Source: Gemmatimonadaceae bacterium (GTDB lineage Bacteria > Gemmatimonadota > Gemmatimonadetes > Gemmatimonadales > Gemmatimonadaceae). From it: a stretch of 64,000 bases of DNA. The position numbers and the translations under genes are program-made. This document shows, in pieces, positions 3,420 through 25,016 of the stretch (position 1 is the stretch's first letter; every line of letters starts with the position of its first letter). The notes below the pieces were generated by a model. The model was not told where the DNA came from. It did no database searches and worked only from the letters and a program-made list of their open reading frames with translations. The DNA is taken from assembly GCA_051859245.1 (NCBI GenBank), contig JBHYGA010000005.1, positions 512,001-576,000 of the forward strand, in the 5' to 3' direction.

Positions 3420-3812
3420 TCAACAGTTCACGTATGTGATAGGATTTGCCGCGCCGCGCTTCCAGTTTGCGGCGACCGATCTTCCCACGTAGCGGTCACG
3501 AACCGTCTCCTGCGCGAGCGTTCCAGTGAACTCCCAACGACCGGGGCGCTGAACGTCCTCAAGCGGACGCACGTTATAGTCGGTGGTGCCCGCGGGATGC
3601 CATTGATCGATCTCGTAGACCTCGCGGACGATCCCGTCAAACACCGCCAGCGCGAACTTCGCACCGCTCCGGCGCGGGCCGACCACCCACACGCCACGTG
3701 TGACTTCGTACAGCTGCTCGGCGGACATGTCGGGCCGATAGGCCCGTTGAATGCGAATCAAAATGGCGGCGTCGTTAATCACGACAGGAGTGGCGACTTC
3801 GTTCGTTCGCAT
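3420..3812 (-). CDS. Uncharacterised protein resembling the C-terminal domain of LEM-3-like GIY-YIG proteins (no GIY-YIG domain present)
   Basis: 130 aa with the pattern YEVTRGVW..G..R....FALAV..GIV.EVY....W....RWEFTG, recalled from that family and not HMM-confirmed. Confidence 0.55.
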   Translation of the reverse strand: MRTNEVATPVVINDAAILIRIQRAYRPDMSAEQLYEVTRGVWVVGPRRSGAKFALAVFDGIVREVYEIDQWHPAGTTDYNVRPLEDVQRPGRWEFTGTLAQETVRDRYVGRSVAANWKRGAANPITYVNC

Positions 3813-4001
3813 AGGTCATTTTTCTCGATCTTGATGGAGCGTTGGTGCAGCGTTGTCAACGAATCGCACGCAGCTGCGAGCGCCGCCTCGTCAGCATTCG
3901 TGTGGTCATATGCAAATGAATAGCACTGAAAACGGCGGGCAGCGACGGCGGGCGAGCGCCTCGGCGAATCGATTGATCGCCGCCGCGTGAAAAGTACGTC
4001 G

Positions 4002-5318
4002 TTATTCGCCGGTAGGTCCTCGCCGTAGTTTCGCGTCGTAGTTGCCCTTGCCACGACGCGCGTTGTGCGTGCGTTGCATCTGATACTTCGCGTCGCGTTC
4101 GGAGTAGTCACCGTCCCGATACCGCGCCTCCATTTGCGCGAGGTCGGCTGACTCGGCCAGCATCTCCGATGCGAACGCGACGTCGCTATATGCCGGGGAG
4201 GAGAGAATCCACTGCTGCGCGTCCTGCATGTGCTGCGCGGCCGCGTCGGCATTGCCTTGACGTTGTTCGCGAGCCGCGGCTTCACGCGCCTTCGCGGATC
4301 GGGCCATGACGATGGCGCGTTCGACTTCGGGCACCATGTGCGCCTGGCCATCGAGCGTGGCCGCGATGGGCAACGCGAGCGTGCGCTGCTCCACGCCTCC
4401 GCCGTTGGTGAGGACAAACGCTGAGACGCGCAGCGTCGCGAGAACGACAGGTTCGTTGATCGCGACGGTCGACGCGTTCGCCGGCGCGAGCAATTCGAAT
4501 AGCAACGGCTTGGGTTCACTCGCATACAGATCGCCCAGGTCGAACGTGAACGAGCCGTTTTGCTGCGTCGTGGGCCAGTCGGAGTGCACCGTGAGCATCT
4601 GGACCTCGGGGTGGAGCGTGAGCGTCACCGTCAGCCCCTGCGCTGCGACATTGAGCAGATTTCCGAGTTCCTCGGCGAAGACGTCCTGCGCCTGATCCGG
4701 CCGTTCGACGTACCACGCATTGCCGCCACCGGCGTCGGCCATGGCGCGGAGCAGATCGTCGTCGTAGCCCTCGCCGACGCCAATGGTAGACGTGGTGATG
4801 CCGAGCGTGCGTGCGGTGCGCGCGAGATCGACTAGCGTATCCCGGTCGACGATGCCCGCGTTAGCGTGGCCGTCGGTGAGGAGCACGATGCGTCGCGACG
4901 TGCCGGCGGCGCTGGACAGGAGTTCGGCGGCAGATTCCATGTGCTGACGACCTCGCAGCCACCCTCCACTGAGATTCGTGCTGCCGCCCGGCTCGATCTC
5001 TCGCAGGCGGTCAGCCAGCTGGTGTTGGTCACGGCACCGCGCGGGATCGGCCAGCGTCTCAATGTCCTGATCGAAGAGCACCGCCGAGACAACATCGTTG
5101 GGGTGCAGGCGTTCGACGGCGCGTGCGGCGGCAGAACGGGCCGCGTGCAACGGTGCGCCGGACATGGAGCCGCTGCGGTCGAGTACGAGGGAAAGACCGA
5201 GGGGCGCGCGGGACGCGGCGGTGGGAGCCGTGCCGGCGATGGAGAGCAGGGCCCGCACGACGGTGGTACCGGGGGTGGTCGCGTGCGGCTGGTGATCGAG
5301 GAGGAGCGTGGTGTCCAT
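4002..5318 (-). CDS. von Willebrand factor A (vWA) domain protein
   Basis: MIDAS motif DRSGSM, GSTNL, LLTDG. Start moved to MDTTLLL (ATG 5318) because the longer ORF overlaps the HD gene. Confidence 0.9.
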   Translation of the reverse strand: MDTTLLLDHQPHATTPGTTVVRALLSIAGTAPTAASRAPLGLSLVLDRSGSMSGAPLHAARSAAARAVERLHPNDVVSAVLFDQDIETLADPARCRDQHQLADRLREIEPGGSTNLSGGWLRGRQHMESAAELLSSAAGTSRRIVLLTDGHANAGIVDRDTLVDLARTARTLGITTSTIGVGEGYDDDLLRAMADAGGGNAWYVERPDQAQDVFAEELGNLLNVAAQGLTVTLTLHPEVQMLTVHSDWPTTQQNGSFTFDLGDLYASEPKPLLFELLAPANASTVAINEPVVLATLRVSAFVLTNGGGVEQRTLALPIAATLDGQAHMVPEVERAIVMARSAKAREAAAREQRQGNADAAAQHMQDAQQWILSSPAYSDVAFASEMLAESADLAQMEARYRDGDYSERDAKYQMQRTHNARRGKGNYDAKLRRGPTGE

Positions 5319-5346
5319 GCGCGTGTCCGTTGTGAGGGATACGGGC

Positions 5347-5368
5347 AGGTTAGGGGGAGGGTCTGACA
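5347..5368 (-). promoter_or_regulatory. PafBC/RecA-NDp-type promoter motif upstream of the vWA gene
   Basis: Minus strand TGTCAG-accctccccc-TA-acc-T, ending about 29 nt before the ATG. Confidence 0.7.
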
Positions 5369-5970
5369 GGGGCGGTTGGGTGCGCGACACCTTCAATGAC
5401 CGCGAGCAGCCGTTCCATTTCATCAAGCAGGGGCCCGCTGAATCCGGCCGTTCGATACGCGTCGCGTGCTCCCGCGTAGTACCAGACTTGCCGATCCCTG
5501 GGCGCGTTGAATCGCGACCACACCTCGTCACCAGTGCGCTCAATATCGGCCACGATCGATCGCAAGTTGTCGACCTTGTCGGCCACAGTGACGCGCAGAT
5601 CCGCGGGGTTCGCCGTGCGCGCGTGTGCCAAATACGATTCTTTGCGCTCAATCCATGGTCTCTTTGGGCCGCCTCTGTAGCCCGGGCCGGTGTCGCTGCT
5701 CAACTCCACGATGCGGCGCACGCGTTCGCCAAACTGCGCCTCGATCTCGTCGGCACTGATTTCATCGCCGTGATCCTCTACGGCGTCATGCAACAGCGCG
5801 GCGACGGCTTCATCTTCGTCACCTCCATGCCGTTGCACGAGCTGACAGACGCCGAGGAGATGCGCCAGCGTGGGAATCTGCGTGCCCTTGCGTGCGTCGG
5901 TAGCATGCAGCTTCGCGGCGAGTGCGAGAGCTGCAGCGAGGCGAGGGGAGAGGGAAGCGGTATCGGCCAT
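5350..5970 (-). CDS. RelA/SpoT-type HD-domain hydrolase (small alarmone hydrolase/MESH1-like)
   Basis: H..D.RKG...P...HL, AALLHDAVED, FGERV..IV, PW..RK..YL, ADKVDN. Start MADTAS at 5970. Confidence 0.85.
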   Translation of the reverse strand: MADTASLSPRLAAALALAAKLHATDARKGTQIPTLAHLLGVCQLVQRHGGDEDEAVAALLHDAVEDHGDEISADEIEAQFGERVRRIVELSSDTGPGYRGGPKRPWIERKESYLAHARTANPADLRVTVADKVDNLRSIVADIERTGDEVWSRFNAPRDRQVWYYAGARDAYRTAGFSGPLLDEMERLLAVIEGVAHPTAPVRPSP

Positions 5971-6105
5971 GCGTTTTGGGTTTGAGGGGGGCGGACGCAG
6001 CTCGCGTACTTGGCAACAAACTATCTCGGAAAAAATCGTGGTGTTTTCCACCGTCAAAACGCCAGCGACGTGTGGGTGTACTTGCACGAGCACCGACCAC
6101 GACGC

Positions 6106-6585
6106 TTAACACCGCCGACGAATCGGCATGTCAGGAAAGCAAAATTCCCCATGCGAGTTACTGAACGCCTGATAGTGCAGCTGTTCTATACCCTCGATTC
6201 CATACACCTCACGCAGCGTACAGATGAGCAGTGCTGCGACCTGCCGCACCGATGTGCCAGCGGGTACGTCGATGAAAAAGTTGGGGCTCCCATTGGGATC
6301 GTTGTACTTCGCCACCAGTTCCGGTGCATCATCAGTCGCTCGACGCCACCCTAGTTCGGTCAAGTAGCAGTACTGCTCGACCGTGAGCGCCGCACTCGGC
6401 GGTTCAATGTACGTGTTGCTGACCGCTTCAATGCGGAACGCCCCGGTAGTCGTACCAGCTACCTGCACAAAGTGATTGACATGACGACGCGCAATGATCA
6501 TGAAATCGCCTTTCCCCAAGTCGCCGAGCGCACGCGCGACCGCTGAAGTGAGCGATTCCCAGTGCTCTTCAGTACTTGTTGTCAC
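6106..6585 (-). CDS. TY-Chap-like (T3SS-chaperone/YbjN-like) domain protein
   Basis: FVQVA....FRIEAVSNTYI...LGW...PNF...A.L...TLREVYG pattern. GTG start at 6585 with GGAG 7 nt upstream. Confidence 0.6.
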   Translation of the reverse strand: MTTSTEEHWESLTSAVARALGDLGKGDFMIIARRHVNHFVQVAGTTTGAFRIEAVSNTYIEPPSAALTVEQYCYLTELGWRRATDDAPELVAKYNDPNGSPNFFIDVPAGTSVRQVAALLICTLREVYGIEGIEQLHYQAFSNSHGEFCFPDMPIRRRC

Positions 6586-6704
6586 GCACGATCTCCATTC
6601 GAAGGACACCGAAAATTTCGCAGCGGGGTCTGAGAGCGCCCGCGTCAACATTTGTCGGTGCACGCAAATGAGATCACGCGCATGCACCGACCGTCGATCG
6701 CTCC

Positions 6705-8684
6705 TCAGCGCCGACGCATGATCTGCGGCGTGTCTACAGCACGAGCGCTCGCGTTCGCACCAGTGAGCATTGGAACGTTCGTATCGGGTAACGCTCGCGC
6801 GCGATCACGGCGCAGCTGTTCAAGTTCCGTTGACAGCTCAGCGATGGATGACGGCATGGTGGAGCTTGCGCCAATAAACGCGTCCGCCAAGACACTCTGC
6901 AGGTTGTTGCCAGGGCAAGCCTCAAGAAGCGGCGTCAGTCTCGGCCCGAGCCCACTCACCCGAAACGACACGGCCTTTGCGCTCCCCCGGAACTCACCGA
7001 ATGCAAACGTGAACAACCGCGAGCCTGCGACCTGAAAGGCAAATGACTTGACGGAGGCATTGGTCCCTGTTTTACCGAGCGAGCTAAAGTTGTCGAACTC
7101 AAGCCAGGTCTCAGCCACTGGTGTTCCGCCATCAAAGGAAAACGCCACGGTACCGCTCGCGGTGACAAAACGATCCGTGGCGACCCATGCCACAAACGAC
7201 CCAGTCGACGAGCATACAAAAGTGAGCTCAGGATATTCGGATGAGCCAAACTGGTTTGAAATCTGATTGTCGGAGGGAAGCGTGGTGAATACGATGCCGT
7301 TACCGCTGAGCGACAACCAGTCGTACGCGGTGATTGGACTTTCCCAGGCCACTCCATCAATCGTCGCCACAATGGTGATCGTACCGGTACCGGCCGGAGT
7401 GAAGAGTCCCGCTGGCGTGAACGTGCCTGCCGAAGGATTCGTCGTGCTCCAGGAAACGGGGCGAGAGATCGTGTTCCCATCTGACGTGCGTGCAGTCACC
7501 GAATACTGATAACTGTCGCCAACCTTCACGCGCGCTGTGCCAGTGAGCGTCACACTCGTCACGGCAGATCGAACTTGTATCACGAGCGTGCCAGTACGAC
7601 CCTCGCTGCTCGCAGAGATCGAGGCCGTGCCCGGAGCGACAGCGCTCACCAGCCCAGTGGCGGACACGGTGGCAATGCTGGAATTACTCGTGCCCCACAC
7701 CACGGTGCGGTCTGTCAGCATCGCTCCATTCACGTCGCGTATTGTCGCTGAAAGTTGCGCCGTGGCGCCGGGTGTAAGCGAACTCGCCCCGGAGATCGAA
7801 ACAGTTGCAACGGGCACGGGGAGCACTGTGAGTGTCGCACTACCCGTCTGACCCTCGCTGGTGGCAGAAATGCTTGTCGTACCCGGAGCGACCGTGGTAA
7901 CTCGTCCGCTGGCATCAACCGCGGCGACCGACGTGTTCGATGATGTCCATGCCACCACGCGGCCGTCCAAAGGGCTTCCGTTGGACGATCGCAACGTTGC
8001 CGATGCCGACGTAATCGTGCCCGCGACGACTGATGCCTGCGCGAGCGTCACCGTCACGGAGGCGACAGGCGGCGGCGTCACCCTGAGTGACGCACTCCCC
8101 GTTCGTCCTTCGCTCGTAGCAGTGATCGTCGTTGTTCCGGCGGCGAGCGCGGTGACTGTTCCGGTAGCGTCAACACTTGCCACCGACGGCGCTGACGAAC
8201 TCCATGCTACGCTGCGACCGGTGAGCACGGCGCCATTGTCGGAACGCAGTTCTGCCGTTGCCGACGTGCTGGTACCCGCAACGATCTGTGGGTTCGATAG
8301 ACTCACGGTTACGGTCGCCACAGGAGGCAGTGTCACAGTCAGTGACGCACTTCCGGTTCGTCCTCCGCTCGTCGCCGTGATCGTCGTTGTTCCCGCGGTC
8401 AGTGCTGTCACGGTACCGGAGCCATCAACACTCGCCACTGCTGGCGATGACGAACTCCATGTGACACTGCGGCCACTGAGAACCGTGCCGTTAGCGGCTC
8501 GCAATTCTGCGCTTGCCGACGTGCTGGTACCCGTCACGATTTGTGCGTTCGTAAGCACCACCGTCACCGTGGCCACCGCGGGTGGTGATGGGTTCCCTGG
8601 TGGGGCGACAGGATTGTCAGTACCGCCACCACCACACGCCGTAACGAACAGCAGTGCCGCACCGCACAGTAACGATCGCTTCAT
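6705..8684 (-). CDS. Lipoprotein with 4-5 bacterial Ig-like (Big_2) repeats and a C-terminal VasI/TagO-like domain
   Basis: Signal peptide with lipobox FVTAC, then ~85-aa repeats V.WSSS.P.VASVD..G.VTA..AGTTTITATS.G. C-terminal domain PELTFVC...FDGG...W...F.VSGL..LTPLLEAC. Confidence 0.85.
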   Translation of the reverse strand: MKRSLLCGAALLFVTACGGGGTDNPVAPPGNPSPPAVATVTVVLTNAQIVTGTSTSASAELRAANGTVLSGRSVTWSSSSPAVASVDGSGTVTALTAGTTTITATSGGRTGSASLTVTLPPVATVTVSLSNPQIVAGTSTSATAELRSDNGAVLTGRSVAWSSSAPSVASVDATGTVTALAAGTTTITATSEGRTGSASLRVTPPPVASVTVTLAQASVVAGTITSASATLRSSNGSPLDGRVVAWTSSNTSVAAVDASGRVTTVAPGTTSISATSEGQTGSATLTVLPVPVATVSISGASSLTPGATAQLSATIRDVNGAMLTDRTVVWGTSNSSIATVSATGLVSAVAPGTASISASSEGRTGTLVIQVRSAVTSVTLTGTARVKVGDSYQYSVTARTSDGNTISRPVSWSTTNPSAGTFTPAGLFTPAGTGTITIVATIDGVAWESPITAYDWLSLSGNGIVFTTLPSDNQISNQFGSSEYPELTFVCSSTGSFVAWVATDRFVTASGTVAFSFDGGTPVAETWLEFDNFSSLGKTGTNASVKSFAFQVAGSRLFTFAFGEFRGSAKAVSFRVSGLGPRLTPLLEACPGNNLQSVLADAFIGASSTMPSSIAELSTELEQLRRDRARALPDTNVPMLTGANASARAVDTPQIMRRR

Positions 8685-8740
8685 CGGGCCTCTCCTCAGT
8701 CATGCTTGATGCACAACGGCATTTCCGTCATACCAAGTAC

Positions 8741-8762
8741 AAGCTGAGGGAGGGGTCTGACA
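8741..8762 (-). promoter_or_regulatory. PafBC-type promoter motif (variant) upstream of the Ig-repeat lipoprotein
   Basis: Minus strand TGTCAG-acccctccct-CA-gct-T. The spacer is nearly identical to the 5347-5368 copy. Confidence 0.6.
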
Positions 8763-11093
8763 CTACATGTTGAGCGCCGAGCGCAATCGATGAATGCGCT
8801 CCCGCAGCGCGACATGCATTGTTGCTGGCGCGATCACTTCGGCGTCTCCGCAGTACTGAAAAACGTGGCGCACTGCCCACTCCGTGTCAGCGAGTGGATG
8901 CGATACCGTGAGTGACCCATCGTCAGCGAGCGCGACTCCTTCCCGTTCGGCAATCCATCGGGCGATAGTTGGCGAGTAGCGAACCACGAGCGCGGCGTGC
9001 ACACCGTTCATGAAGGCGCGGCCGCGTTGAACAACAGCATCGATAGAGAAGCCGTCAGGAATGACGTACTGTTCGCCGGTTTTCTGTGCTTCGAGCACGC
9101 GATCAAGTCTGAACAGGCGTAGCTGCTGTGCCCGTCTGCAGTGGGCCACCATGTACAGACACGCTCCGCTTGCAAGAATCGCATAGGGTTCGACCTCGCG
9201 CGTTTCAGCGACATTGGCGCTTGACTTATGGTAGTGAATTGTGAGCACTTGCCGCTGCTGCAGCGCCAACCGCACTGTGGCCAGCGTAGCCAGGTTGCCC
9301 ACATCACCAGCCGATACCGCAAATCGATCGACGATCGGGTCGTTTCCAATCGCAACCACAACGCGTTCGAGTCTCGCCCGCGCCCGTTCCAGTACGGCGT
9401 GCTCGTTTGGGGTGCGCAAATGCTTGAGCACCGAAAGGCCGAGTGTGATCGCACAGACTTCCGTTGCGACGAGGCGCATGGGCCGCCTGAACGCTGTTGT
9501 GACAGCGGAAATCGTTTCGCGGTCGATGAAGAGTTGCACGCCCTCCACAAATCCGCCCGGTGTGTCATAACGAGCGACCAGCGCAAAGACATCACTGCGC
9601 AGCGTGTCCGCATCGATACCCGTGCGTTGCACGAGATCCTGTATAGCATGCGAATCACCGCTCGCGAGCAGTGGCATCGTTTGCAGGATCCGCCGTAACT
9701 GCGCGGCTGCTGTTTCCGTTACGCGTGCTACTCGCGCGGCCGGTTTGGTGAGCACTGGTGCGAGTGCGGGCGCCTGTGTCCCCAGCGCCGCTGCCTGCGC
9801 CGCACCGGTCTCAACAGACGTTGCCAAACGTTCGAGTGCGTGGCGCACGCCGTCTACAAGGCTGGTCGGCGACTCGGGAATCGCGTCACCGGCGAGCGCG
9901 AGCAACCAACGAATAAAGGCATCTTCTCGTCGAACGGAGAAGCGGCGACGTTCGGTACCGTCGGCGGCGGGCGGCAGTGTTTCCCCCAGCTGCAACGCGG
10001 CGCGTGCCGCGTCATCGTCTGCGCGAAAACGCACGATCACCTCGAGCGGCGGGTCTTCACCAAGCTCCCACGCCTGTCGCGACGCCGCGTGCTCGCGCAA
10101 GCGAAAGTCTGACGGCACGTCGAAGTCTGGCGTTTGTGCCTGCTTCGTGTTCAGCTGCGGCACACGGATACGATTCAGTCGAAAGTTCCGGAGTGCCGCC
10201 GCGTCGACATCTCTCGCCACGAGATACCAGTGACCGCTCTGAAAGAAGAGCCCCCACGGTTCGACCGCACGTTCACGCACCTCATTTCGACCGAAGGTGT
10301 GATACTCGAAACGCACGCGTTTCCGTCGCTGCATCGCGTCTGCGAGCGCCGCAAAAACTGCCGCGTCATGCTGCGCCGCATCATGCTGCACACGCGGTAC
10401 TCCGCTGCTCACGTGCACCGCGCCTTGCTGCTGTTCGCTGCCCGTTGGTCCCACCGGCAGATCGAACGCGAGCTTCCTGAGCGCGCGCGACGCTTCCGCA
10501 GCGAGCATTGGATCACCGAGCTCACGGGCACAGGCCGCAGCATCAACGATGGCCTGGAGCTCGTCGGGCTCGAAGGCCAACGTGGCCAACGCAGCGTACC
10601 CATAACCTGCAATCGCACGCGCACGCTCGGCGGTAGAGCCCAGCGTTTGCTGCGTTACGGTTTGCGTTGAAGCCTCTGGCGCAACCAGCACAAGATACGG
10701 CAGGTAGAAATCCGTGCGCCGCAAGCGATACGCGCCTTCCTCATTGTCGTCGTGGTCAGCAACAGTTTCGATGGGTATGCCTAGTGCGCGCAGTTCGTCC
10801 TTGTCGCGTTCGAACATGCGTTTGGTACTGTCGCGTCGTCGCTTGATCTCGGCGAGCTGTGTCGGATCGTTTGTGCCAGCCACATCGGGCCATTCGTACG
10901 CCGGCACCTCGGGTGCGAGCTGCTCGAAGGTGACTTCCTTGCGACGCGCGAGAAGAGCGGCCACCAGATCCACCCATCGCTGTAGTTTCGCGTTGCCCGC
11001 GCTGGCCGGTGGCAACTCCAAGTCGTCGGCAGCTTCGTCAGCGCTGTTGTGTTCGCGAGCCGTCGCGGAGGATCCGGGTTGTGTGGACATCAT
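8763..11093 (-). CDS. PafBC-like fused double HTH-WYL-WCX transcriptional regulator
   Basis: PafB-like half: KRMFERDKDELRALGIPI, VEPWGL, GHWYLVARD, RNFRLNRI. PafC-like half: FRRPMRL, VEPYAI, LRLFRLDRV, V.QYCGDAEVIAP. Start MMSTQP at 11093 is inferred. Confidence 0.9.
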   Translation of the reverse strand: MMSTQPGSSATAREHNSADEAADDLELPPASAGNAKLQRWVDLVAALLARRKEVTFEQLAPEVPAYEWPDVAGTNDPTQLAEIKRRRDSTKRMFERDKDELRALGIPIETVADHDDNEEGAYRLRRTDFYLPYLVLVAPEASTQTVTQQTLGSTAERARAIAGYGYAALATLAFEPDELQAIVDAAACARELGDPMLAAEASRALRKLAFDLPVGPTGSEQQQGAVHVSSGVPRVQHDAAQHDAAVFAALADAMQRRKRVRFEYHTFGRNEVRERAVEPWGLFFQSGHWYLVARDVDAAALRNFRLNRIRVPQLNTKQAQTPDFDVPSDFRLREHAASRQAWELGEDPPLEVIVRFRADDDAARAALQLGETLPPAADGTERRRFSVRREDAFIRWLLALAGDAIPESPTSLVDGVRHALERLATSVETGAAQAAALGTQAPALAPVLTKPAARVARVTETAAAQLRRILQTMPLLASGDSHAIQDLVQRTGIDADTLRSDVFALVARYDTPGGFVEGVQLFIDRETISAVTTAFRRPMRLVATEVCAITLGLSVLKHLRTPNEHAVLERARARLERVVVAIGNDPIVDRFAVSAGDVGNLATLATVRLALQQRQVLTIHYHKSSANVAETREVEPYAILASGACLYMVAHCRRAQQLRLFRLDRVLEAQKTGEQYVIPDGFSIDAVVQRGRAFMNGVHAALVVRYSPTIARWIAEREGVALADDGSLTVSHPLADTEWAVRHVFQYCGDAEVIAPATMHVALRERIHRLRSALNM

Positions 11094-11188
11094 CGTGTAT
11101 TGTCGGCGGTTGCCTGCATTCGAGCGCCCCGTTTGGTGCGTGCGAGCCGGGTCAGGGAAGGGATCGCACATGACCCGAACAGAAAACG

Positions 11189-11210
11189 AAGGTACGGTCG
11201 AGCTCTGACA
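11189..11210 (-). promoter_or_regulatory. PafBC-type promoter motif upstream of the PafBC-like gene (possible autoregulation)
   Basis: Minus strand TGTCAG-agctcgaccg-TA-cct-T, about 95 nt upstream of the inferred start. Confidence 0.65.
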
Positions 11211-12398: not shown

Positions 12399-13373
12399 CT
12401 ATCTTCCCGTGTTCACTGTGCGTGCTCGTGCGGGGCTACGTGGATTCTTTCTGGATAGTCGCACTCGCGTGCAGACTACTCGACCATCCGCGACTACATC
12501 CTCCCGACGATCCCTTCGACTCACTCGCAAGCAACCCACCTCAGGGAATCGCATAGCGATAAGGATTGAGGCGAGCACGTGCGGCTTCGGACCCATGGGG
12601 ATCAAGTTGACATCGGCAGAGCGTCGATGCGGATCAATGGTCTCGGCAAGATACCGAAATGCCTGTTCTACGCTTGTCAGCGGAAGCCCGAAGGAGCGCG
12701 CAGCTTGAGACACGATTTCTCGATTCTCCTCCTGAACTCGCGCGGCGTATCCATCGGGGGCGTCCTGCTCTGCAAAGAATGAGTAGATCAGATCAGGCTC
12801 CATCTGGTCTAGAACACAGAGGGATGCCAGACTGTCAAAGCCGAGGCCGATGATCGCCACTGACCGATTGTGCGCAAGCGCTCCTCCTTCGCAGCCCGGA
12901 ATGCACAGTACATTGTCAATGACCATAGGCGGAAGAGTAGTCTGGTGTCTTCCCACGGCGTAAACGAAGTCGATGTCGACGGTTTCAAGAGCACTTGCAA
13001 CTCGAAACCAATTCAGAACCGCTGCGTACCAGAGACGCGACATCGCACTGTAGTCAACCAAGATCTTGAGCGCGGACTTGGCGTTAGACTCTGCGTCTCT
13101 CAAGCACGAATAGATGGCGATATCGTCACTTCCTGCTATGACCTTCGGAAGTACGCCAAAAGCACTGCGAAAAAACTCGTCGTTTGTCTTGCGGACGATA
13201 TCGTCGGCAACCGTGGAAAAGCCGACTACTGAGATCTTTCCGAGACGCGCAGCTTCCAGCTTGCCGGCGATAAACGATGCGCGGACCTCATACCCACTCG
13301 CGAAAATGCTGGCGTCGTAACTTCCGGCTTGCACTGCGGCAAGGTCAGAGTCCTCGATGCTATCAATCAACAT
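12399..13373 (-). CDS. Uncharacterised protein with two Rossmann/CARF-like domains
   Basis: ATG 13373 with GGAGG upstream. Halves ASGYEVRA...ILVDYSAMSR and GLGFD...LIPMGPKPHVLAS. Overlaps the ATPase stop by 11 nt. Confidence 0.65.
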   Translation of the reverse strand: MLIDSIEDSDLAAVQAGSYDASIFASGYEVRASFIAGKLEAARLGKISVVGFSTVADDIVRKTNDEFFRSAFGVLPKVIAGSDDIAIYSCLRDAESNAKSALKILVDYSAMSRLWYAAVLNWFRVASALETVDIDFVYAVGRHQTTLPPMVIDNVLCIPGCEGGALAHNRSVAIIGLGFDSLASLCVLDQMEPDLIYSFFAEQDAPDGYAARVQEENREIVSQAARSFGLPLTSVEQAFRYLAETIDPHRRSADVNLIPMGPKPHVLASILIAMRFPEVGCLRVSRRDRREDVVADGRVVCTRVRLSRKNPRSPARARTVNTGR

Positions 13374-15189
13374 GAGAATCGTCGCCTCCGAACAAGTCGC
13401 TCTGCTCGACAAGGCGTGCGGCGCGTTCTTCTTTCGAGGCAGACTGATATGCGAGAATCCAAGTCAAGCTTCGCGCGCGTCCGCGTCTAGGTAGTATGCG
13501 AAAGTGTGGCGCGAGAACGTACGCTAGATGAAACGTACCGCTGCGAATTGGCATCTGATCCGGATTGCTTTGGCCAGTGTTTGGGAAGAGTAGTCCCAGA
13601 CCGACAGCGCGTTCGATGAGCTTCCAGTGTTCGCTGCTTACCGATGCATCGACGATAAAGCTCGAGATCTGGTCCGTGCTTATGGGGCGGTTGTGCAGTG
13701 AGTCGCGCATGAATGAACCGACACGCTCAATGAATGTGAAGAGTTCCGGGCCAACCTCCGGCTCGCTTTGGATTCTTGAGAGGGTAGTAGTGGAGAACGC
13801 GATCAGGTTTCTTGTTTGGTTCGCCTGCGTTATGGACTTAATCCTTCTTCCGTCTCGCCAGCGTTCCTCAACCAAGAAGCTGTTAATGATCCTGATGAGT
13901 CTCCGTGGATTTGCGTCGCCGCACCGCACGATCATGCTCGCGCCAGAGTAAACTTTCAACTCATCGCGACCAGTCGTCCTTTGAATTGCCTCGCGGAGCT
14001 GTATCGCGCCATGCATTTTGCGACTGATCTGATTTCTAAACTCGGACGGATTCGGTACAAGACGATCCGCTCTGGCGATTGTTTGCTCATCCGCATGCTT
14101 TCTTAGGAGCTCCCAATTCGCGGAATCTTCATCCCACGATTCACTCTGTGGATCAAGAAGTTCTGAGCGTCCAAAGAGCGCGTTTAAGGTAACTCCCTGA
14201 TACTTCGCGCCTGACGCGGATGCTCGCTTCCGAAATAGCAAGTCAGCGAACTGCCTCCCGTTGTCTTCCTTCACGCCGGAGAAGCCGATTGGATCGCGAT
14301 CGATGTAGACGTATTCAAAATCGTGACCAACATTCAAACCTACTCCAAGATTGGTGTCTTGGGTCAGGTGGTAGTACGGCATGGTCGTAATCTTGAAGTG
14401 CAGATTGCCACTGTTGCTTCGAAGATACGAGTTAAGGATTCGCTGGTGTTCGAGTCCCAAGAACTCCGCCTCGTCGAGGCATAGTAACCATGAGCAGTCT
14501 GCAGGCAGTTGCAAAGCTACGGCACTTAGTGCGATCGCCCTGCGCAGCGGCGTGAAGAGAGGTAGGTCAAAGCCAATTCCTGCTGGCTCCTCCGCTTCAC
14601 GAAGAGATCCGGTCGCACGTACCCTCACCAATTGCTGCTGCTTCTGATGCTCACTTGCTTCGATTTGTGCTTGTAGCGCGCGAATACTCTCTAATGGCGG
14701 GAACTCCGGCATCCATGCCACGCAAAGCTGCCCGACTATGTGCCCCTCAAGACGAGCCGCTTCACCACGATCAGAGGAGTATCTGTCTAGGCAGCTACGC
14801 AGGGTGACGAGGAACGCCAAGCAGCTCGCGACGTTTAGCCGCCACTGGAAGAACGACTCCAGCTCGACTTCCGTTTGCCACGTCTTGTTTTTGAGTCCAC
14901 CAACCCACTCAAGGCTCGTTGGCAGATAGATGCCGATGAACGCTCTCGACTGGATTGCGCTCTTAGCGCGCGGATTTTCGAATCTGGACAGATGATCATG
15001 TGAGAGCATCTTCGCCAGCACAGTCTTGCCCGATCCGCGGGCGCCAAGAACGATATGGTTTTTCGGAGAAAGCAACCGCCAGAACGACCTCGTGTCGACA
15101 AAGGTGGCGACAACCTCATCGCGCGTCAGGTTTCTTGCGTTTTCTATCTCGAAAAGATCTCGCCGGAAGTCGCTGCTTGTCTCAACCAT
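13363..15189 (-). CDS. ORC/CDC6-like STAND P-loop ATPase with C-terminal winged-helix-like region
   Basis: N-terminal FEIENAR, Walker A GARGSGKT, Walker B LLCLDEAE, NPRRLIRI, C-terminal LIERAVGLGLL...FHLAYVLAPHFRI. Confidence 0.8.
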   Translation of the reverse strand: MVETSSDFRRDLFEIENARNLTRDEVVATFVDTRSFWRLLSPKNHIVLGARGSGKTVLAKMLSHDHLSRFENPRAKSAIQSRAFIGIYLPTSLEWVGGLKNKTWQTEVELESFFQWRLNVASCLAFLVTLRSCLDRYSSDRGEAARLEGHIVGQLCVAWMPEFPPLESIRALQAQIEASEHQKQQQLVRVRATGSLREAEEPAGIGFDLPLFTPLRRAIALSAVALQLPADCSWLLCLDEAEFLGLEHQRILNSYLRSNSGNLHFKITTMPYYHLTQDTNLGVGLNVGHDFEYVYIDRDPIGFSGVKEDNGRQFADLLFRKRASASGAKYQGVTLNALFGRSELLDPQSESWDEDSANWELLRKHADEQTIARADRLVPNPSEFRNQISRKMHGAIQLREAIQRTTGRDELKVYSGASMIVRCGDANPRRLIRIINSFLVEERWRDGRRIKSITQANQTRNLIAFSTTTLSRIQSEPEVGPELFTFIERVGSFMRDSLHNRPISTDQISSFIVDASVSSEHWKLIERAVGLGLLFPNTGQSNPDQMPIRSGTFHLAYVLAPHFRILPRRGRARSLTWILAYQSASKEERAARLVEQSDLFGGDDSHVD

Positions 15190-15194
15190 GTTTG

Positions 15195-16418
15195 CTAATT
15201 GAAAAGGAGAACGATGTCTTCTGGTGTATCTCCGTGCGTCCGAAAATCGAAGTGCTTTTCTATGTCGCGAAGAACCTGTAGGATCGTCTCAGCCGGTAAG
15301 TATTTGAGGTCGGAGCATTCGGCGACGATTTCATGCCAGCTGCAGTAAGCCTTGGGTCCCCTTCTAGCGTTAATGATGGGTGAGACAAGGGACCGGAGTT
15401 CGGAGATTGTGTCGTGTTTGCCGAATGGGCGCCGATGCTCGATGCCGTGATGAATCCGACTTTTTTGCCAGCCATTGGAGAACAGATACGACCAGCTCTC
15501 CACGGTCCCGCAAATCCGCCCCGACCTCGTTCGGCCATCAACCGCAATCACGTGAAACTGATTTGCGACGATGCCACTCCACCTGGTGCTGATCAGAGCA
15601 GAGAGACTTCCTGAGCCTAGGATCGCCAGCGGTGGGTATGGTGTTGTCGCGTACGTATTGAAGTGTGGCTTGTGCTTGTGACCATGAACGAGTAGATCGA
15701 TCTCGTGGCGCCCGAGCATCTTTAATAGCGCGTCAGAATTGACCATCAGACTAAAGTCTGGCGAATCAGGCGCAGGATCCGAGTACTGCACCGGATGATG
15801 ATGCACCAAGAACACTCTCAGTTGTCCATTGGCCGGCGGACGCGCGGACAGCAGTCGGTCTAGTTCTTCGAGCGACTTTGTAGAAATGCTACCGTGGTGT
15901 GGCTTCGTATCGGGATTGTCGTTCCATGATGAGTTGTGAGCGAAGAGTACCGCGTGTTCGTCCTCCCAAAAGCCGAGGTACGGTTCATCAACCAAGCTCG
16001 TCGAACTCTTCGAAATACATCTAGACAAAACTTGACTGGTTCGGGTTAGCGGAACGTACCGCTGCGCCGCTCCTAGTCCGGTCTTGTCATCAGGATATTG
16101 AGAGAACGACGTCCAGTTTACATCGTGATTCCCAGGGACAAATGCAATTCTCTCTTCGGCGACTCCTAGTGCTTCCGCGATCTCTAGCAGAAACTCTGAC
16201 GCGAGTACGAATTCATCCGGTTGGGCTTTGTTGCTCACGTCACCAGGGCAGAGTAGATAGTCCGCCCTTATCGTGTTCTCGCGAAGAAATTTGATGAAGG
16301 TCGATCGATAGTTGCTTTCGATCTGATGTGTCGAGGGACTTGGTGACAGATCCTTGGCGCGAGCACCAGTACCGACGTGGAGATCGCTTGCAACTGCCAA
16401 ACGGAGTGGCTTTTTCAT
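15195..16418 (-). CDS. Calcineurin-like metallophosphoesterase with C-terminal extension
   Basis: All five motifs present: SDLH, PGD, GNHD, VHHH, HGHKH. Start MKKPLRLAV at 16418, 10 nt after the MTase stop. Confidence 0.9.
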   Translation of the reverse strand: MKKPLRLAVASDLHVGTGARAKDLSPSPSTHQIESNYRSTFIKFLRENTIRADYLLCPGDVSNKAQPDEFVLASEFLLEIAEALGVAEERIAFVPGNHDVNWTSFSQYPDDKTGLGAAQRYVPLTRTSQVLSRCISKSSTSLVDEPYLGFWEDEHAVLFAHNSSWNDNPDTKPHHGSISTKSLEELDRLLSARPPANGQLRVFLVHHHPVQYSDPAPDSPDFSLMVNSDALLKMLGRHEIDLLVHGHKHKPHFNTYATTPYPPLAILGSGSLSALISTRWSGIVANQFHVIAVDGRTRSGRICGTVESWSYLFSNGWQKSRIHHGIEHRRPFGKHDTISELRSLVSPIINARRGPKAYCSWHEIVAECSDLKYLPAETILQVLRDIEKHFDFRTHGDTPEDIVLLFN

Positions 16419-16428
16419 TGTGCGTTCG

Positions 16429-17250
16429 TCAGCGCTTCGCGATAACAGAGTTTGTGAAGACCAGTTCTGCAGCGCGGCGCCTATGCTTCGCAAAACCAGA
16501 TATGTTTCGCTGGACGAACTTTCGTTCTACATGCCAGCCATTGAACTGCCGCCTTGACTCAGCTGAGTCGGCGTACGATAGGACGAACGTCGCCCCCAAC
16601 GCGTTGATGCAGTGCAGGAGTTCTGACAGACGCTCCAAATCTTCCAAACCGAACGTCGCTGGCCCGTACTGACGAAAGATCCGACGATTCTCAACCGCAT
16701 ACGGCGGATCTAGGTAGACGAGGTCTCCCGATCGTACGTTGTCGCGAACAACGCGTTCAAAGTCGCCACAGACAATCTTGCAGGATCGGAGCCGAACGCT
16801 GCATTGCTGAATCTGTGTAAAGGAGGGCAAACGGCCGGTTCGCGTAGGTGCATAAGGTACGTTGAACTGCCCCTGAAGATTGGTCCTATAGAGTCCATTG
16901 AAGCAAAAGCGATTCAGGTAGACTAGCCTTGCCGCACGTTGCGCGCTTGTAAGATTCGAGTAATCCTGACCTCTCAGTGAGTTGTACGTCTCCCTGGATT
17001 GCGGCAGACGGTCAAGCTCATGAGACACAGCGTCTGGAGTATCTCTTACAGCAACGTATAGATTCGTGAGTTCCTCGTTCGAGTCCGACAGCAGTGCTCG
17101 TTTCGGATCGAGTGCAAAAAATAGACTTGCCGAGCCTGCGAATGGTTCGACGTACCGAACGTGCTGCTCCGCGTTCCAGTAGCGCACTAGTGTGCTTATT
17201 AGGCGTCGCTTGCTGCCCGCCCATCGAAGTATCTGGAGCTCTGACTTCAC
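16429..17250 (-). CDS. Dam-family (D12 class) DNA N6-adenine methyltransferase
   Basis: LRWAGSK, YVEPFAGS, FNGLYRTN..G.FNVPY, VYLDPPY. GTG start. Confidence 0.92.
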   Translation of the reverse strand: MKSELQILRWAGSKRRLISTLVRYWNAEQHVRYVEPFAGSASLFFALDPKRALLSDSNEELTNLYVAVRDTPDAVSHELDRLPQSRETYNSLRGQDYSNLTSAQRAARLVYLNRFCFNGLYRTNLQGQFNVPYAPTRTGRLPSFTQIQQCSVRLRSCKIVCGDFERVVRDNVRSGDLVYLDPPYAVENRRIFRQYGPATFGLEDLERLSELLHCINALGATFVLSYADSAESRRQFNGWHVERKFVQRNISGFAKHRRRAAELVFTNSVIAKR

Positions 17251-17439
17251 GAAATCGGTAGTCCACAGAGGTTTCGCAAATTACTTACCGGGGGAAGATC
17301 GTCTCGGCAGCGGGCGTGCGTAAGTGCGAGCTGCCTGCAGTTCGCGGCACCGCCAAGAAGCAGAAAATTGGGTCGCAAGAATAGCCGGCGTTGTGCGTAC
17401 GGCCAGAACCTAGGTTTGGTGTGCCCTGCCACCGGGCGC

Positions 17440-17988
17440 TCAGGGAGTAGCCGAAACTCTCGCTGGAGGCGCCTGCTGAACTTTGAAGAAGTCCCCCATC
17501 TCGGCGTGAACGATCTCATACGTCTGGACTCGGAAACGCCCAAAGGCGGTCTCCAACTCACCCAGTCTGTCCGCCGAGTTTGAAGCACGCGCGATGGCGA
17601 TGGATGCTTCCCAATCGGCGCGAAGCGCCTGAAGTGCGAAGAGCGCCTCGGTTTGACTTCTCCATCCGACTTCCCATCTAAAGTGAGTACCGATTCCGGT
17701 TAGGATCGCTATCACGGCTGAAGCAGCGGATACAAGGAAGCTCTTGCTGATCGGGAATCCGTAGACAACCGTGTCTGTTGCGAATACGGCAATCAGCGGA
17801 AGTAGTCCGCTCAACACGATTATGCTGACGCTTGAGTACCTGAACCACTTTCGCTTCGTCGTCGATCTGTCACGATAGTAGTCGAGCATGTACTCAAAAC
17901 TCTCAGGCGTGTGAATGTCTGAGAGAAACACGGATGTGCTCAGCTGGGTGAGGTAGCGCTCTATTGTATCGTCAGTTTTTGCTTCCAT
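17440..17988 (-). CDS. DUF4231/SLATT-like two-transmembrane protein
   Basis: YYRDRSTTKRKWFR, two hydrophobic segments, then FRWEVGWRS.TE...L. It is the first gene after the cassette start. Confidence 0.75.
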   Translation of the reverse strand: MEAKTDDTIERYLTQLSTSVFLSDIHTPESFEYMLDYYRDRSTTKRKWFRYSSVSIIVLSGLLPLIAVFATDTVVYGFPISKSFLVSAASAVIAILTGIGTHFRWEVGWRSQTEALFALQALRADWEASIAIARASNSADRLGELETAFGRFRVQTYEIVHAEMGDFFKVQQAPPARVSATP

Positions 17989-18406: not shown

Positions 18407-19861
18407 TCACCCCACCCCCACCAACCCCCGTCTCGACGCCATAACGTGATCCCGCGTCACCGTCCCATCCCCCAGCTCCCGCGCATCTCTCTCGGCCGCG
18501 TCCCTCAACCGCTTCGCCACTGAAATCCGAATCAACACCGGCTGCGCATCACACAACTCATCAAGCAACGCCTTCGCGTCATCACTCCACGGCAGCTCCT
18601 TATGCAGTCTCGCCGGCGTCGCATCGATCTTGTCCATATCCGTACCCAGCGGCAGGATATGAAACAGCGCATCAAACAGCTGATTACACACTTCCTGAAT
18701 CAGATACGTCGCGCCCGAATACCCCATGAACGGCGTGCCCGTATGCCGGCGAATAATCGCCCCAGGAAACGACGCCGGAATGTACATCGCGCGCGACCCA
18801 CTCTCGGCCAGATACATGCGCTCGTTGTACGAACCAAACATGATCAGTGGCGGCGTAGCTTTAATCGCCGCACGCACGGCCTGATTGTCCGGCTTTACAC
18901 CAGGCCTGCGCGCAAAGCTGAAAGTGCAGGGCAGCCCCATCTCCGTTTCAAGGAAATGGCGAATGCCACGCGCGTGCGTTTCGTTCGCCACAATCGCAAA
19001 ACTCGCCGTGCCGAAAAAATCTTGCGTGACCGACCGCCACAAATCCCACAACGGCTTGATGGTGGTGTGCTTTTCTTTTTCAATGAACGGTTCGGGATCT
19101 ACACCCAGCAACTCACCGAGCGTGCGCAAAAACTTGGTGGTGCTATGCAAACCGATTGGTGCCTGCAAATACGGCACATCAAGATCTTCGCACAGCAGGC
19201 GACCAAACTCGCGGTACATGCAGATGTTCACATCAGCATCCACCAACCGCGGCACTTCACTCAAATGCGCGCCGAGCGGGAACACCATGTTGATCTCCGC
19301 GCCAATGCCTTCCACCATGCGGCGCACTTCGGCGAGATCACTCCACGTGTTGAAGTAGCCGTACATGGGCCCGATAATGTTCACGCGCGGCTTGGCGCCG
19401 GGCAAACGCTCCGACTTGTTGGGACGCACACCTTTTTTGAGGCCGTACTCCGTCCACAACCAGTAGATGGCACGGTTCGCAGCCTGCCACTGATCTTCGT
19501 CAATCGTGCGCGGCAGAAAACGCTGAATGTTGGTGCCTTCCGGCGTGACACCACCACCAATCATTTCGGCGATTGAACCGGTCACCACTACGGCCGGCAA
19601 CTCCGGATCAAGCGTGGAGTGCGCGCGTTTCATGGCGGCTTCAGTACCGGTCTGACCAAGCTCTTCTTCGCCGAGTCCGGTCACAACAATGGGCAGTTCG
19701 TGCGGCGGCAGTGCGTCGGTGTAGTGCAGTACCGATGTCACCGGCAGGTTTTCGCAGCCAACCGGCCCGTCAATCACCACCTGCAAACCCTTGATCGCGG
19801 TAAACGCATACACTGCGCCCCAATACCCACCAGCGCGATCAAGATCGAGAATCAATGTCAT
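18407..19861 (-). CDS. bchZ: Chlorophyllide a reductase subunit Z
   Basis: [22 protein letters not shown]-terminal [18 protein letters not shown]. Position after bchY. Confidence 0.97.
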
Positions 19862-21519
19862 ATCATCTGCTCCGCCTGACGCTTCTTATTCAGGCGCGCG
19901 AGGTGGCGTTTGTAGTGTTCACGGAACTCCGGACGGTCCACCGGCACTTCTTCCCATACGCCGGCCGCGTAACCCGAACCTACGTCACCAAAGAAGTTCT
20001 TCATTTCCAGGAAGCGCGCTTTGTTGCCAAGCGCGGCGTTCACAACCGTGGCCAGTGAACCCGCACCAGCCGGGCCCATGAGCGGCCGCGCCGAAATGAG
20101 ATTGGTAAAGTAGAGCGCGGGAATCATCAGCTCTTTTGCTTTCTGCACCACAGGCGTGGTACCAATCGCGAGGTCGGGCTCAAACTCCTGCATGGCCTGC
20201 AGATCATGTTCGAGCGACGCGCGGAACTGCACACGCACACCACGCGCTTCCAGCCAGTCACGATCGGCCATGTTGTACGGCGTGCGCGGGCACGCCGAGC
20301 CTACGTAGCGCACATCGGCGCCGCTCTCAATGAGCAAACGCGCCACCAGCAACTCCGAGCCTTCGTAACCACTCATGGTAATGCGGCCTTTGATGGGCCG
20401 AGATGCAAGCGCACCCTTGATCGCCGGCAGCACGCGATTTTTTGCTTCGTCAATTTTATCGCGCGACACGCCGGCCATTTGCCCGATGTTTTCGAGCCAC
20501 GCTTCGGTACCGTCGTAACCAACCGGCGCTGAACCAACAATCGGTCTGCCCGCCGCTTCAAACTCGCGGAAGCTCGCCGTGTAAAACGGATGAATCGCGG
20601 CCACACCAACACAGTCGAGCGCGGCGTACAGTTCACGCCACTCACGCGTTGGCACAACCGGACCGGCCGCGAGTCCCATGGGCTCGAGCATCATGCCAAT
20701 GCCAACGGGGTCCACCGGAAACATTTCGCCCACCAGTGTGACCGTGGGCTTTTCCGCGCGACCGCCACGTGGTGCCTGCACGGGACCCTGTTCGGCCTCG
20801 AGTCGCGCGTACTTGAGCATGGCGCCGGCGAGCACGTCTTTGGCTTCGGCGTGCGTGGGCACACCAAAACCCGGCACATCAATGCCCACAATGCGCACGC
20901 CGTTGATTTCTTTCGGCAAGATCTGCAGGGGAACGCCTGATGCCGTGGGTACGCACAAGTTGGTAATCACAATTGCATCGTACAGCGCCGGATCGGCCAT
21001 CTCGTGTACGGCGTCGCGAATGTCTTCGAACAACTTGCCGGTCACGAGCGACTCGGAGTTGAACGGCACATACCCAACCGTGCGCCGAGCGCCGTAAAAG
21101 TGCGACGTAAACGTGAGACCGTACACGCAGCACGCACTGCCGCTCAGAATCGTGGCCGTGCGACGCATGCGCAGACCAACTCGCAGCGAACCAAACGCGG
21201 GGCACATGCTCTGCGGCTGATCGTGCGGGCCTTTGGGATAGTCGGCCGCGTAACGGTCGAGCGTTTCGCTCTTGCCCGCCGCACGTGCAGCCGCGCGCAT
21301 TTCGCCTGCACCGGAGTGACAGCCGATGCCGTCTGTTACGGTAGCCGCCACGTTGATGTCTTCCACAATCGGCAGCGCACTGCGCGTGCCCGTGTTTTCG
21401 CCGACTGCAGCCGGCGACGGCGCACACCCAAGCCCACCCGGCGCGTCACCATCATTCGCCATGGGCGTTGCGCCGGCATCGTCGTACGCAACCTCGTTCC
21501 TTCGCACATCAATCGTCAT
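19858..21519 (-). CDS. bchY: Chlorophyllide a reductase subunit Y
   Basis: [41 protein letters not shown]. Confidence 0.97.
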
Positions 21520-21530
21520 GGCGCGCTGCC

Positions 21531-22532: not shown

Positions 22533-23470
22533 GCGACGGAGCTCCAGTCGAGGATCATCTTGACGCAGTTGGGATCGGTGAAAGCGGTGGTGTAAGCCAA
22601 CTCGGCCTGTTCCGCTTTGTGCGTGTGCGTAATCAGCCCATCAAGGTTCAGCTGACCACTATTCGTTAACTCGGCGACCGCTGCGAGATCACCGGGTGCC
22701 CACTGCGCGGCAACAGCCAGTGTTGCTTCGCGCAAAAATGCGGGCGGAAATACAAAACTCACGGGCTCGTGATAAAAACCGGCGAGCACAATCGTGCCGC
22801 CTGGCTTGAGTCGCGAAATGAGTGTGTCGAGCAAACCATTCGCGCCGCTCACTTCCTGAATGCACTGATAACTCGTGCCCAGATCTTCGTCAGGATGCAC
22901 CACGCGATATCCTTCCGCGCCCGTGCTGCGAATGGGATTCACTTCCCACACGGTTGGTGCCGCGCCGCCGAGTACGAGTGTGAGTCGCGCAATGAGTCGG
23001 CCGAGTGCACCGTGTCCAACGATTAGATCAGGCAGCGCACGTTTGCCAACACCAAGTGCGTGATACGCTGTTGCAGCGAGCGCGAGCAACACACCGCGTT
23101 CCTGCACGGAGTCAGCGAGTGGTACGGTGCGTGCACCGGGCACCACAACGCGTGCGGCTTGTCCACCAAAGAGTCCGCGTGCGCCTTCAAATCCTTTGGA
23201 GCCGGCAATGAATACCTGCCGCCCAACGGTGCGCCCGGAGGTTGGACCGGCGTGCACGATTTCGCCCACGGCCTCGTAGCCCGGCACGAGCGGGTAGCCG
23301 AGCCCGGGGAAGGGTGGCATTTGCCCAGTATATAGAAGGCGCTCGGTGCCGGTGCTGATACCGGACCACCGGATCGCGACTATGACATCCTCGTCGGCGG
23401 GCGAGACGAGCGACAATCGGCGCAGCGAGAGAGTCTCAGGCTGCTCGAACACTACGGCCAGCGTGTCCAC
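22529..23470 (-). CDS. bchC: 3-hydroxyethyl bacteriochlorophyllide a dehydrogenase
   Basis: WSGISTGTERLL..G.MPPFPG.GYPLVPGYE, ALAATA.HA, C.KMILDWS. Confidence 0.95.
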   Translation of the reverse strand: MDTLAVVFEQPETLSLRRLSLVSPADEDVIVAIRWSGISTGTERLLYTGQMPPFPGLGYPLVPGYEAVGEIVHAGPTSGRTVGRQVFIAGSKGFEGARGLFGGQAARVVVPGARTVPLADSVQERGVLLALAATAYHALGVGKRALPDLIVGHGALGRLIARLTLVLGGAAPTVWEVNPIRSTGAEGYRVVHPDEDLGTSYQCIQEVSGANGLLDTLISRLKPGGTIVLAGFYHEPVSFVFPPAFLREATLAVAAQWAPGDLAAVAELTNSGQLNLDGLITHTHKAEQAELAYTTAFTDPNCVKMILDWSSVA

Positions 23471-25011: not shown

Positions 25012-25016
25012 GCCCC

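Follow-up and report, generated by a model that had tools for sequence, protein, structure and literature searches.

A likely PafBC-type regulon clustered in a defence island of a Gemmatimonadaceae genome

Mycobacteria are where PafBC and its action at promoters were elucidated (PMC8635444), and the structure paper describes both the fused and the paired forms of the regulator as actinobacterial (PMC6789036). According to the accounts of the mycobacterial system, PafBC is activated by single-stranded DNA bound to its WYL domain (PMC11804915). It is reported to control ~150 genes, and its in vivo promoter consensus is tGTCgg(N10)tA(N3)T, made of a -26 element and a normal -10, with no -35 (PMC8635444). 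WYL factors also appear in the parts list given for predicted systems centred on an ADP-ribosylglycohydrolase (ARG). That list names a one-component factor (WYL or Nudix), a coupled phosphatase (rhodanese-type, calcineurin-like, alarmone-type HD or HAD) and peptide-binding chaperones (vWA, SseB, TY-Chap1-3) (PMC9503650). Here we describe a window of 64,000 nt (contig C5:512001-576000) from a Gemmatimonadaceae bacterium, in which six open reading frames (ORFs), all on the minus strand, occupy positions 3420-11093. They encode a PafBC-like regulator, a Big_2 lipoprotein, a TY-Chap3 protein, an HD-domain hydrolase, a vWA protein and a small protein. We consider this region likely to be the clustered core of a PafBC-type regulon. 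We class the cluster as such a regulon and not as a fixed six-gene system, because its promoter box persists at orthologues unlinked to pafBC.

The genome is 4.7 Mb in size, with 62% G + C, in 11 contigs, and is 99.9% complete. The closest named relatives of the proteins came from Gemmatimonas and other Gemmatimonadaceae assemblies. Domains were identified with Pfam, NCBIfam and PADLOC, and the phylum sample comprised 301 Gemmatimonadota genomes (G numbers). ORFs in the related loci (L numbers) were picked by us and are not annotated calls. The genomes compared are related, hence their counts are not independent of one another.

The fused regulator and its putative promoter boxes

The cluster contains the following features, given in window coordinates.

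11189-11210, minus strand: PafBC-type box 1, TGTCAGAG-N8-TACCTT, 95 nt upstream of the pafBC ATG
8763-11093, minus strand: fused PafB-PafC-like regulator, 776 aa, with two WYL, two WCX and one HTH_PafC domain (Pfam)
8741-8762, minus strand: PafBC-type box 2, TGTCAGAC-N8-CAGCTT, 56 nt upstream of the Big_2 ATG
6705-8684, minus strand: lipoprotein, 659 aa, with five Big_2 repeats (Pfam) and the lipobox LLFVTAC
6642-6697, minus strand: RNA hairpin between the Big_2 stop and the TY-Chap3 ATG
6106-6651 (or 6687), minus strand: TY-Chap3 protein (Pfam PF22552, E 4.8e-17)
5350-5970, minus strand: RelH-type small alarmone hydrolase by sequence, 206 aa (Pfam HD_4; matches to RelH in PDB)
5347-5368, minus strand: PafBC-type box 3, TGTCAGAC-N8-TAACCT, 28 nt upstream of the vWA ATG
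4002-5318, minus strand: vWA protein, 438 aa (Pfam; structure model)
3420-3812, minus strand: small ORF, 130 aa, with no Pfam family, matching the C-terminal half of PD-T4-3 (PADLOC)

Pfam and PADLOC confirmed the domains named in the initial annotation of this DNA (PafBC-like, Ig lipoprotein, TY-Chap-like, HD and vWA). The six genes are co-oriented, as it had stated; this is uninformative, because ~17 consecutive genes (3420-24940) share the minus strand.

The regulator carries a helix-turn-helix (HTH), a WYL and a WCX domain twice, PafB-like and then PafC-like, which is the two-protomer architecture of PafBC. Its best solved relative was the A. aurescens PafBC (PDB 6sj9, E 6.5e-27), with M. 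smegmatis PafB and PafC also matched; the N-terminal half corresponded to PafB and residues 525-766 to PafC. The sequence shows PafB-like and PafC-like halves joined naturally in one 776-aa protein. Residues 88-136 align with residues 42-90 of M. smegmatis PafB, including a nearly identical RMFERDK.ELR.LGIP.ET helix. Within it, R92 and R96 fall on R46 and R50, the arginines described as reading the GTC triplet (PMC8635444).

The pafBC gene is single-copy, the genome search returning only one other, weak WYL match, and recA and lexA are both present. Pup ligase (PF03136) was not found in the genome, a Corynebacterium positive control being detected, and the regulator therefore has no proteasome context. 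PafB-PafC genes occurred in 92 of the 301 Gemmatimonadota genomes, mostly as adjacent genes (a tally including the unpublished genome G057, on which no single claim depends). In five genomes the match reads through as one stop-free frame. The commonest partners in the first 20 pafBC loci were UvrD and PD-(D/E)XK (RecB-like) genes, found in nine, three of which also had a RecD-like gene.

A motif shared upstream of three genes and control by the WYL regulator had both been proposed. The motif was confirmed, and the promoter boxes support such control. The box, TGTCAGAS-N8-nAnnnT in its relaxed form of 22 nt and with TAnnnT as -10 in its strict form, lies on the coding strand 28-95 nt from the start codons of pafBC, Big_2 and vWA. 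The first base of box 1 is position 11210, the very end of the region initially singled out; box 2 begins directly after the pafBC stop codon, and box 3 falls within the 3' end of the hydrolase gene. TGTCAGA, which holds the GTC triplet, stands at a fixed distance from the -10-like nAnnnT and is a putative PafB-type upstream element. All three sites have the target-promoter layout tGTC..(N10)..tA(N3)T. No -35 element was found at the three box promoters, and a scan for sigma-70-type promoters between 3200 and 11600 returned none, with 2.0 expected. Box 1, upstream of pafBC, suggests autoregulation. As a further hint of this, a looser form, tGTC-N12-nAnnnT, was found upstream of pafB 19 times in 33 regions of 330 nt, where a rough estimate without computed control gave ~7.

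The box is specific for its spacing. Three sites were found in the window at N8 and none at each of nine other spacings. In the genome, the relaxed box gave 4, 6, 6, 4, 13, 4, 3, 7, 3 and 1 sites for N4 to N13, and in 37 related loci (532 kb) the counts were 1, 1, 1, 0, 19, 1, 3, 2, 1 and 0, thus an enrichment at N8 only in both. The strict box had only three sites in the 4.7-Mb genome, two of them inside the cluster. In 22 sites derived from the pattern, columns that the pattern leaves free were also biased: positions 8 and 9 were C or G in all 22, position 10 was C or G in 21, and position -1 was a purine in 21. Four other whole genomes of the family had 8, 9, 14 and 5 boxes, compared with 1, 2, 2 and 2 for the reversed pattern.

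Two other motifs were tried and rejected. The actinobacterial box GTCGGTG-N8-TANNNT had only four sites in the genome, none in the cluster, and GGTCGGTG showed no enrichment in the window, with 3 occurrences for an expected 3.7. A pairwise scan of upstream regions against shuffles gave nothing significant; the box escaped it, since only 42 nt upstream of vWA had been included.

The strongest support came from orthologues lying away from pafBC. Among nine loci with a vWA gene unlinked to pafBC, seven had the box, and the aligned boxes end 28-40 nt before the ATG. In eight aligned vWA upstream regions, the invariant positions were TGTCAGA, the A and T of the -10, the GGA of the ribosome site and the ATG; outside this footprint the regions could not be aligned. 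Both hydrolase orthologues in L002 and L003 (79 and 77% identity) had a strict box, 43 and 45 nt upstream. TY-Chap3 had its own box in two of four phylum loci (G257 and G136). The Big_2 orthologue of G257 (L140) also had one upstream, and in G225 (L203) a box lies within the 5' end of the Big_2 open frame. Further boxes precede a YbjN protein, a TY-Chap1 protein, pafB itself (L116, L130, L174), a recB-like gene (L128), and recC in the recC-recB-recD-pafBC run of G225. Orthologues remote from pafBC thus retain the box, and therefore point to common control.

Some boxes form pairs that face away from each other within one intergenic region, serving divergent genes such as Big_2 and recC in G225 (L129:2748-2820, L130:12137-12210, L203:3197-3309).

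Products, linkage and surroundings of the clustered genes

The HD protein had been taken for an alarmone hydrolase, and this assignment holds: by sequence it is a RelH-type small alarmone hydrolase. It matched RelH of L. levettii (7qoe, E 1.1e-38 over residues 7-197) and of C. glutamicum (7qoc/7qod, E 5.8e-30). Its LLHDAVED and ADKVDNL motifs align with 7qoe and 7qoc, as expected for a single catalytic HD domain. The C. glutamicum RelH is reported to hydrolyse (p)ppGpp (PMC5954133).

In the vWA protein, the residues of the metal ion-dependent adhesion site (MIDAS; D47, S49, S51, T114, D149) were invariant in 38 sequences. Its structure model (predicted local distance difference test, pLDDT, 89) comprises a vWA domain, a beta-sandwich and a helical bundle. 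The best Foldseek match was ArnAB (8s05, E 1.8e-22), with 4fx5, the ArnB paralogue 5a8j and Sec23/24 also found, so that the modelled protein has an ArnB/Sec23-24-like build. A Ku-like reading was rejected, no Ku chain being among the 50 best Foldseek matches. Clustering placed Ser/Thr kinase-TPR proteins close to pafBC in 7 of 34 loci (Pfam-checked in two; L112:9841-12582, L124:11145-13850 and five more). These neighbours recall that ArnB-type vWA proteins are under kinase control.

The Big_2 lipoprotein ends in a domain of ~165 aa with two cysteines that were invariant in the alignment (model pLDDT 70), and has orthologues in 12 of the 301 genomes. Its only match, to the IalB/MotY-N-like fold (IalB 3dtd), was marginal (E 8e-4, TM 0.40/0.59) and does not support assigning a function. 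TY-Chap3 is circularly permuted and YbjN/type III secretion system-chaperone-like, with GTG at 6687 as a possible alternative start. Metagenome copies include fusions with TPR repeats or with long C-terminal regions that match no assigned family (L165:2138-3427, L166:5315-6622, L152:316-2280, L154:5051-7186). The hairpin at 6642-6697 has a folding free energy (dG) of -43.3 kcal/mol (z -3.1); none of 200 shuffles was equally stable, and no T run follows it.

The small ORF belongs to a family of 193 stand-alone proteins of ~125-130 aa for which there is no Pfam model, some members being fused to PF22945 or PF04255. It covers positions 128-253 of 256 in the PADLOC PD-T4-3 profile and 131-252 of 255 in phrog_5356. 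PD-T4-3 itself is a two-domain protein of ~255 aa; the small ORF lacks the N-terminal half, which we take to be a GIY-YIG nuclease. No box was found in its 190-nt upstream region, and relatives were present in only 4 of the 301 genomes. Its inclusion in the initially proposed module is not supported: with neither box nor linkage to the others, it falls outside the unit and is a separate, neighbouring gene.

If the regulator works as mycobacterial PafBC does, it would respond to DNA damage or phage attack, be activated by single-stranded DNA, and insert between promoter and housekeeping sigma factor (sigma adaptation). Three units would be switched on: pafBC itself, then the Big_2 lipoprotein, TY-Chap3 and RelH-type hydrolase genes read from box 2, and the vWA gene from box 3. 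Gaps within the second unit are 17-53 and 135 nt, and no terminator was found in it. The enzyme would hydrolyse nucleotides of the (p)ppGpp or (p)ppApp type, client proteins would be bound by vWA and the TY-chaperone, and the cell surface would be altered.

We examined gene neighbourhoods, a check suggested in the initial annotation for the homologues of the regulator. Its outcome was mixed. In 14 other genomes, spread over four families, a full-length vWA orthologue lay ~5 kb or less from pafB/pafC, usually immediately downstream and on the same strand, and this is the only pairing that is widely linked. The full set of six genes was found nowhere else: in none of 80 loci with HD relatives, none of 34 pafBC or vWA loci, and none of 31 metagenome TY-Chap3 loci. 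The 80 HD loci, from many phyla, contained no PafBC, TY-Chap3, vWA or small ORF (tblastn, E<=1e-5), and a single weak match to Big_2. Of the proposed module, control by the WYL regulator and the alarmone hydrolase are supported, and the cluster does lie in a defence island; a conserved six-gene set is not supported.

Other pairings recurred, though at low frequency. The hydrolase was found with pafBC in G240 (divergent, 97 nt apart), G222 and G202; the tally also includes the unpublished genomes G057, G182 and G157, and no single claim depends on them. In G249 the Big_2 C-terminal domain accompanied pafBC, and in G148 and G257 it accompanied TY-Chap3. TY-Chap3 occurred with the hydrolase in G202 and in the metagenome loci L155 and L169, and adjoins HD_4 in L155, L169 and L138; within the phylum it is rare (5/301 genomes). 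The vWA gene was far from pafBC, or on another contig, in one genus (56-58% identical vWA) and in G225 (65%). The block holding the hydrolase orthologue of 79% identity has its match on a different contig of the present genome.

In 10 of the 34 loci, a protein of ~365-420 aa with a weak Pua-like match and many invariant residues, here called protein X, lies between pafC and vWA (L175:7511-8602, L180:6927-8075, L178:7499-8650 and seven more). Three queries did not find it in this genome, and kinship to the small ORF was ruled out (hhalign probability 0.1%).

The cluster sits in a defence island. Before the window there are McrBC, a type I restriction system with an internal NB-ARC gene, and a PLD-like and SNF2 pair. 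The third strict box of the genome (TGTCAGAC-N8-TATCAT; G000 C5:497598-497619, L190:3599-3620) is located here, 31 nt upstream of hsdM and 14 kb before the window; the NB-ARC gene is between hsdS and hsdR, and McrBC just before the system. This restriction system may be under the same regulator. One flank of the cluster (1103-2593, opposite strand) encodes an AAA+ ATPase of the SpoVK/CbbX/EccA type that is extended by 220 aa at its N terminus; a 123-aa ORF without family comes next. The other flank (12399-17988) encodes a CARF6-like protein (PADLOC, E 3.2e-51), an ORC-CDC6-like ATPase (PF24389, E 4.1e-91), a metallophosphoesterase, a Dam methylase and a DUF4231 protein, likely a separate defence system beside the photosynthesis gene cluster. 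The latter comes directly after the island (18407-28875), with genes for nitrogenase-like reductase subunits, a NifH-like protein, an O-methyltransferase, magnesium chelatase I and D, and DUF3623.

Weighing the regulon against alternative explanations

Several observations weigh against a PafBC-type regulon. In this cluster, neither TY-Chap3 nor the hydrolase has a good box to itself; upstream they share only the word GGTCGGTGC, which 9 of 100 shuffles matched, and their co-transcription with the Big_2 gene is assumed. Two of the nine unlinked vWA loci and four of five further Big_2 orthologue loci had no box. Neither recA nor lexA of this genome had one upstream, and the lone site in the vicinity of recB falls within recC, at 319 nt upstream; because of this, the regulon seems small and local, unlike the mycobacterial one. 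At least 8 of the 13 relaxed sites in the genome are inside ORFs and are probably due to chance, as are several genome sites within genes such as rpsI, dnaJ and ggt. The box as written is mainly confined to one family, and most loci of a second large family were without it. Finally, induction, the inducing signal and the sign of regulation are all inferred by analogy.

The alternative that survives best, which we nevertheless think unlikely, is that the cluster derives from the ARG-centric anti-ADP-ribosylation system predicted by Iyer et al. (2022) and has lost the ARG gene. In that case the WYL factor would be a repressor sensing ADP-ribose-like ligands, as that study proposes for such systems (PMC9503650), and the HD phosphatase, vWA and TY-Chap3 proteins would process and chaperone proteins modified by phage enzymes. 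The locus does share with these systems the WYL factor, the HD phosphatase, vWA and TY-Chap3, together with the setting in a conflict or defence island. TY-Chap3 relatives have ARG genes beside them in the metagenome loci L147 and L157-L159, where genes for Metallophos, ARPP-1 and rhodanese-type phosphatases are also adjacent, and the adjacency of TY-Chap3 and HD_4 in three loci fits as well. However, the defining enzyme is missing here: ADP-ribosylglycohydrolase (PF03747) had no match in the whole 99.9%-complete genome, the control being positive in 7 of 14 genomes. ARPP, Macro and NADAR were likewise not found here, and among the neighbours scanned in pafBC loci, which were selected ORFs only, there was no ARG gene. 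In addition, the regulator resembles PafBC, its promoter layout is one described for an activator, and it does not look like the proposed repressor; the commonest neighbours of pafBC in the phylum (9/20 loci) are RecB/RecD-like helicase-nucleases. The cluster overlaps the ARG-centric accessory set but is not a member of that system. We filed it as a PafBC-type regulon because there is no ARG gene and because regulator and promoters point to PafBC-type activation. The initial annotation had not recognised the locus as a characterised system; this needs qualifying, as the WYL, HD, vWA and TY-Chap3 parts make up the accessory set of a predicted system (PMC9503650).

An autonomous six-gene anti-phage or stress system, small ORF included, that moves and acts as a unit appears very improbable. 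The tight co-oriented arrangement, the defence island and the match of the small ORF to a domain of the defence protein PD-T4-3 would suit it. Against this, the full set did not recur in any of the three groups of loci searched, the hydrolase orthologue of 79% identity is placed in a block matching another contig, and the small ORF has neither box nor linkage. The G + C content is also uneven, with ~0.58 across Big_2 and TY-Chap3 and 0.66 across vWA. Least credible of all are chance neighbours in a variable island without common control, for although each gene has different surroundings in most relatives and the pairwise upstream scan gave nothing significant, the box is spacing-specific and retained at unlinked orthologues, the vWA upstream regions share a footprint, and pairwise adjacencies recur in different families.

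With the PafBC-type regulon as the preferred reading, the box-bearing neighbours of the regulator suggest that the mycobacterial control mechanism also works in a distant phylum. A literature search for PafBC together with Gemmatimonad found no paper. A wider, tentative proposal, which we rate as somewhat doubtful, would join the two described systems: PafBC-type sigma adaptation would reach beyond Actinobacteria, and ARG-centric systems would be outputs triggered by single-stranded DNA and controlled by an activator. The Gemmatimonadota PafB-PafC pair, fused here, would use the same promoter grammar of GTC plus -10 to turn on a compact regulon for recovery, made up of alarmone hydrolase, ArnB/Sec23-like vWA, YbjN/TY-chaperones, envelope lipoprotein and RecBCD. 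A conserved box and reading residues in a Gram-negative phylum would make the reach of the mechanism testable, and a list of promoters is ready. If true, damage sensing would be tied to alarmone removal and to a vWA and chaperone pair, and a predicted anti-phage gene set would gain a different regulatory reading.

Comparison with known regulators and enzymes

The regulator agrees with actinobacterial PafBC in having two HTH-WYL-WCX halves, B and then C, with these proteins as its best solved relatives, and in its conserved GTC-reading arginines. Natural fusions are described for some actinobacteria as well (PMC6789036). The 22-nt bipartite box has the same distance from GTC to -10 as that reported for mycobacteria (PMC8635444), and relatives of the locus share the linkage to double-strand-break helicase-nuclease genes. 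It differs in its host phylum, Gemmatimonadota, in having no pafA operon or Pup-proteasome context, in a box reading TGTCAGAS instead of tGTCgg, and in recA and lexA being without box. Only ~5-14 sites per genome were found here, and the recurrent members are vWA, the small alarmone hydrolase, TY-chaperones and envelope proteins. In the proteome reported for an M. smegmatis pafBC deletion, MSMEG_5511, a 'von Willebrand factor', is given with -1.6 (PMC5656591).

The hydrolase resembles the RelH-type enzymes of C. glutamicum and L. levettii (7QOC, 7QOD, 7QOE) and Mesh1 in its single HD domain of ~200 aa and in the HD...ED and DK..N motifs aligned with 7qoe. What sets it apart is the PafBC-type box, placed over the gene itself in L002 and L003 and over a putative box-driven unit here.

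Like the Sulfolobus ArnB/vWA2 proteins (8s05, 5a8j), 4fx5 of Catenulispora and the Sec23/24 trunk, the modelled vWA protein is a single chain in which a vWA domain is followed up with a beta-sandwich and a helical domain as further parts (Foldseek E 1.8e-22, TM 0.63/0.70). ArnB has a role in archaellum control. The protein described here differs from ArnB-type proteins in its low identity (16-19%), in having no FHA partner seen adjacent and in its tie to pafBC.

Neighbouring stress, damage or defence genes are also governed by the WYL activators SiwR, DriD and a Moraxellaceae regulator, as is proposed for the WYL sensor here. By their descriptions these are single-chain homodimers, whereas the regulator here is a PafB-PafC fusion with a PafBC box.

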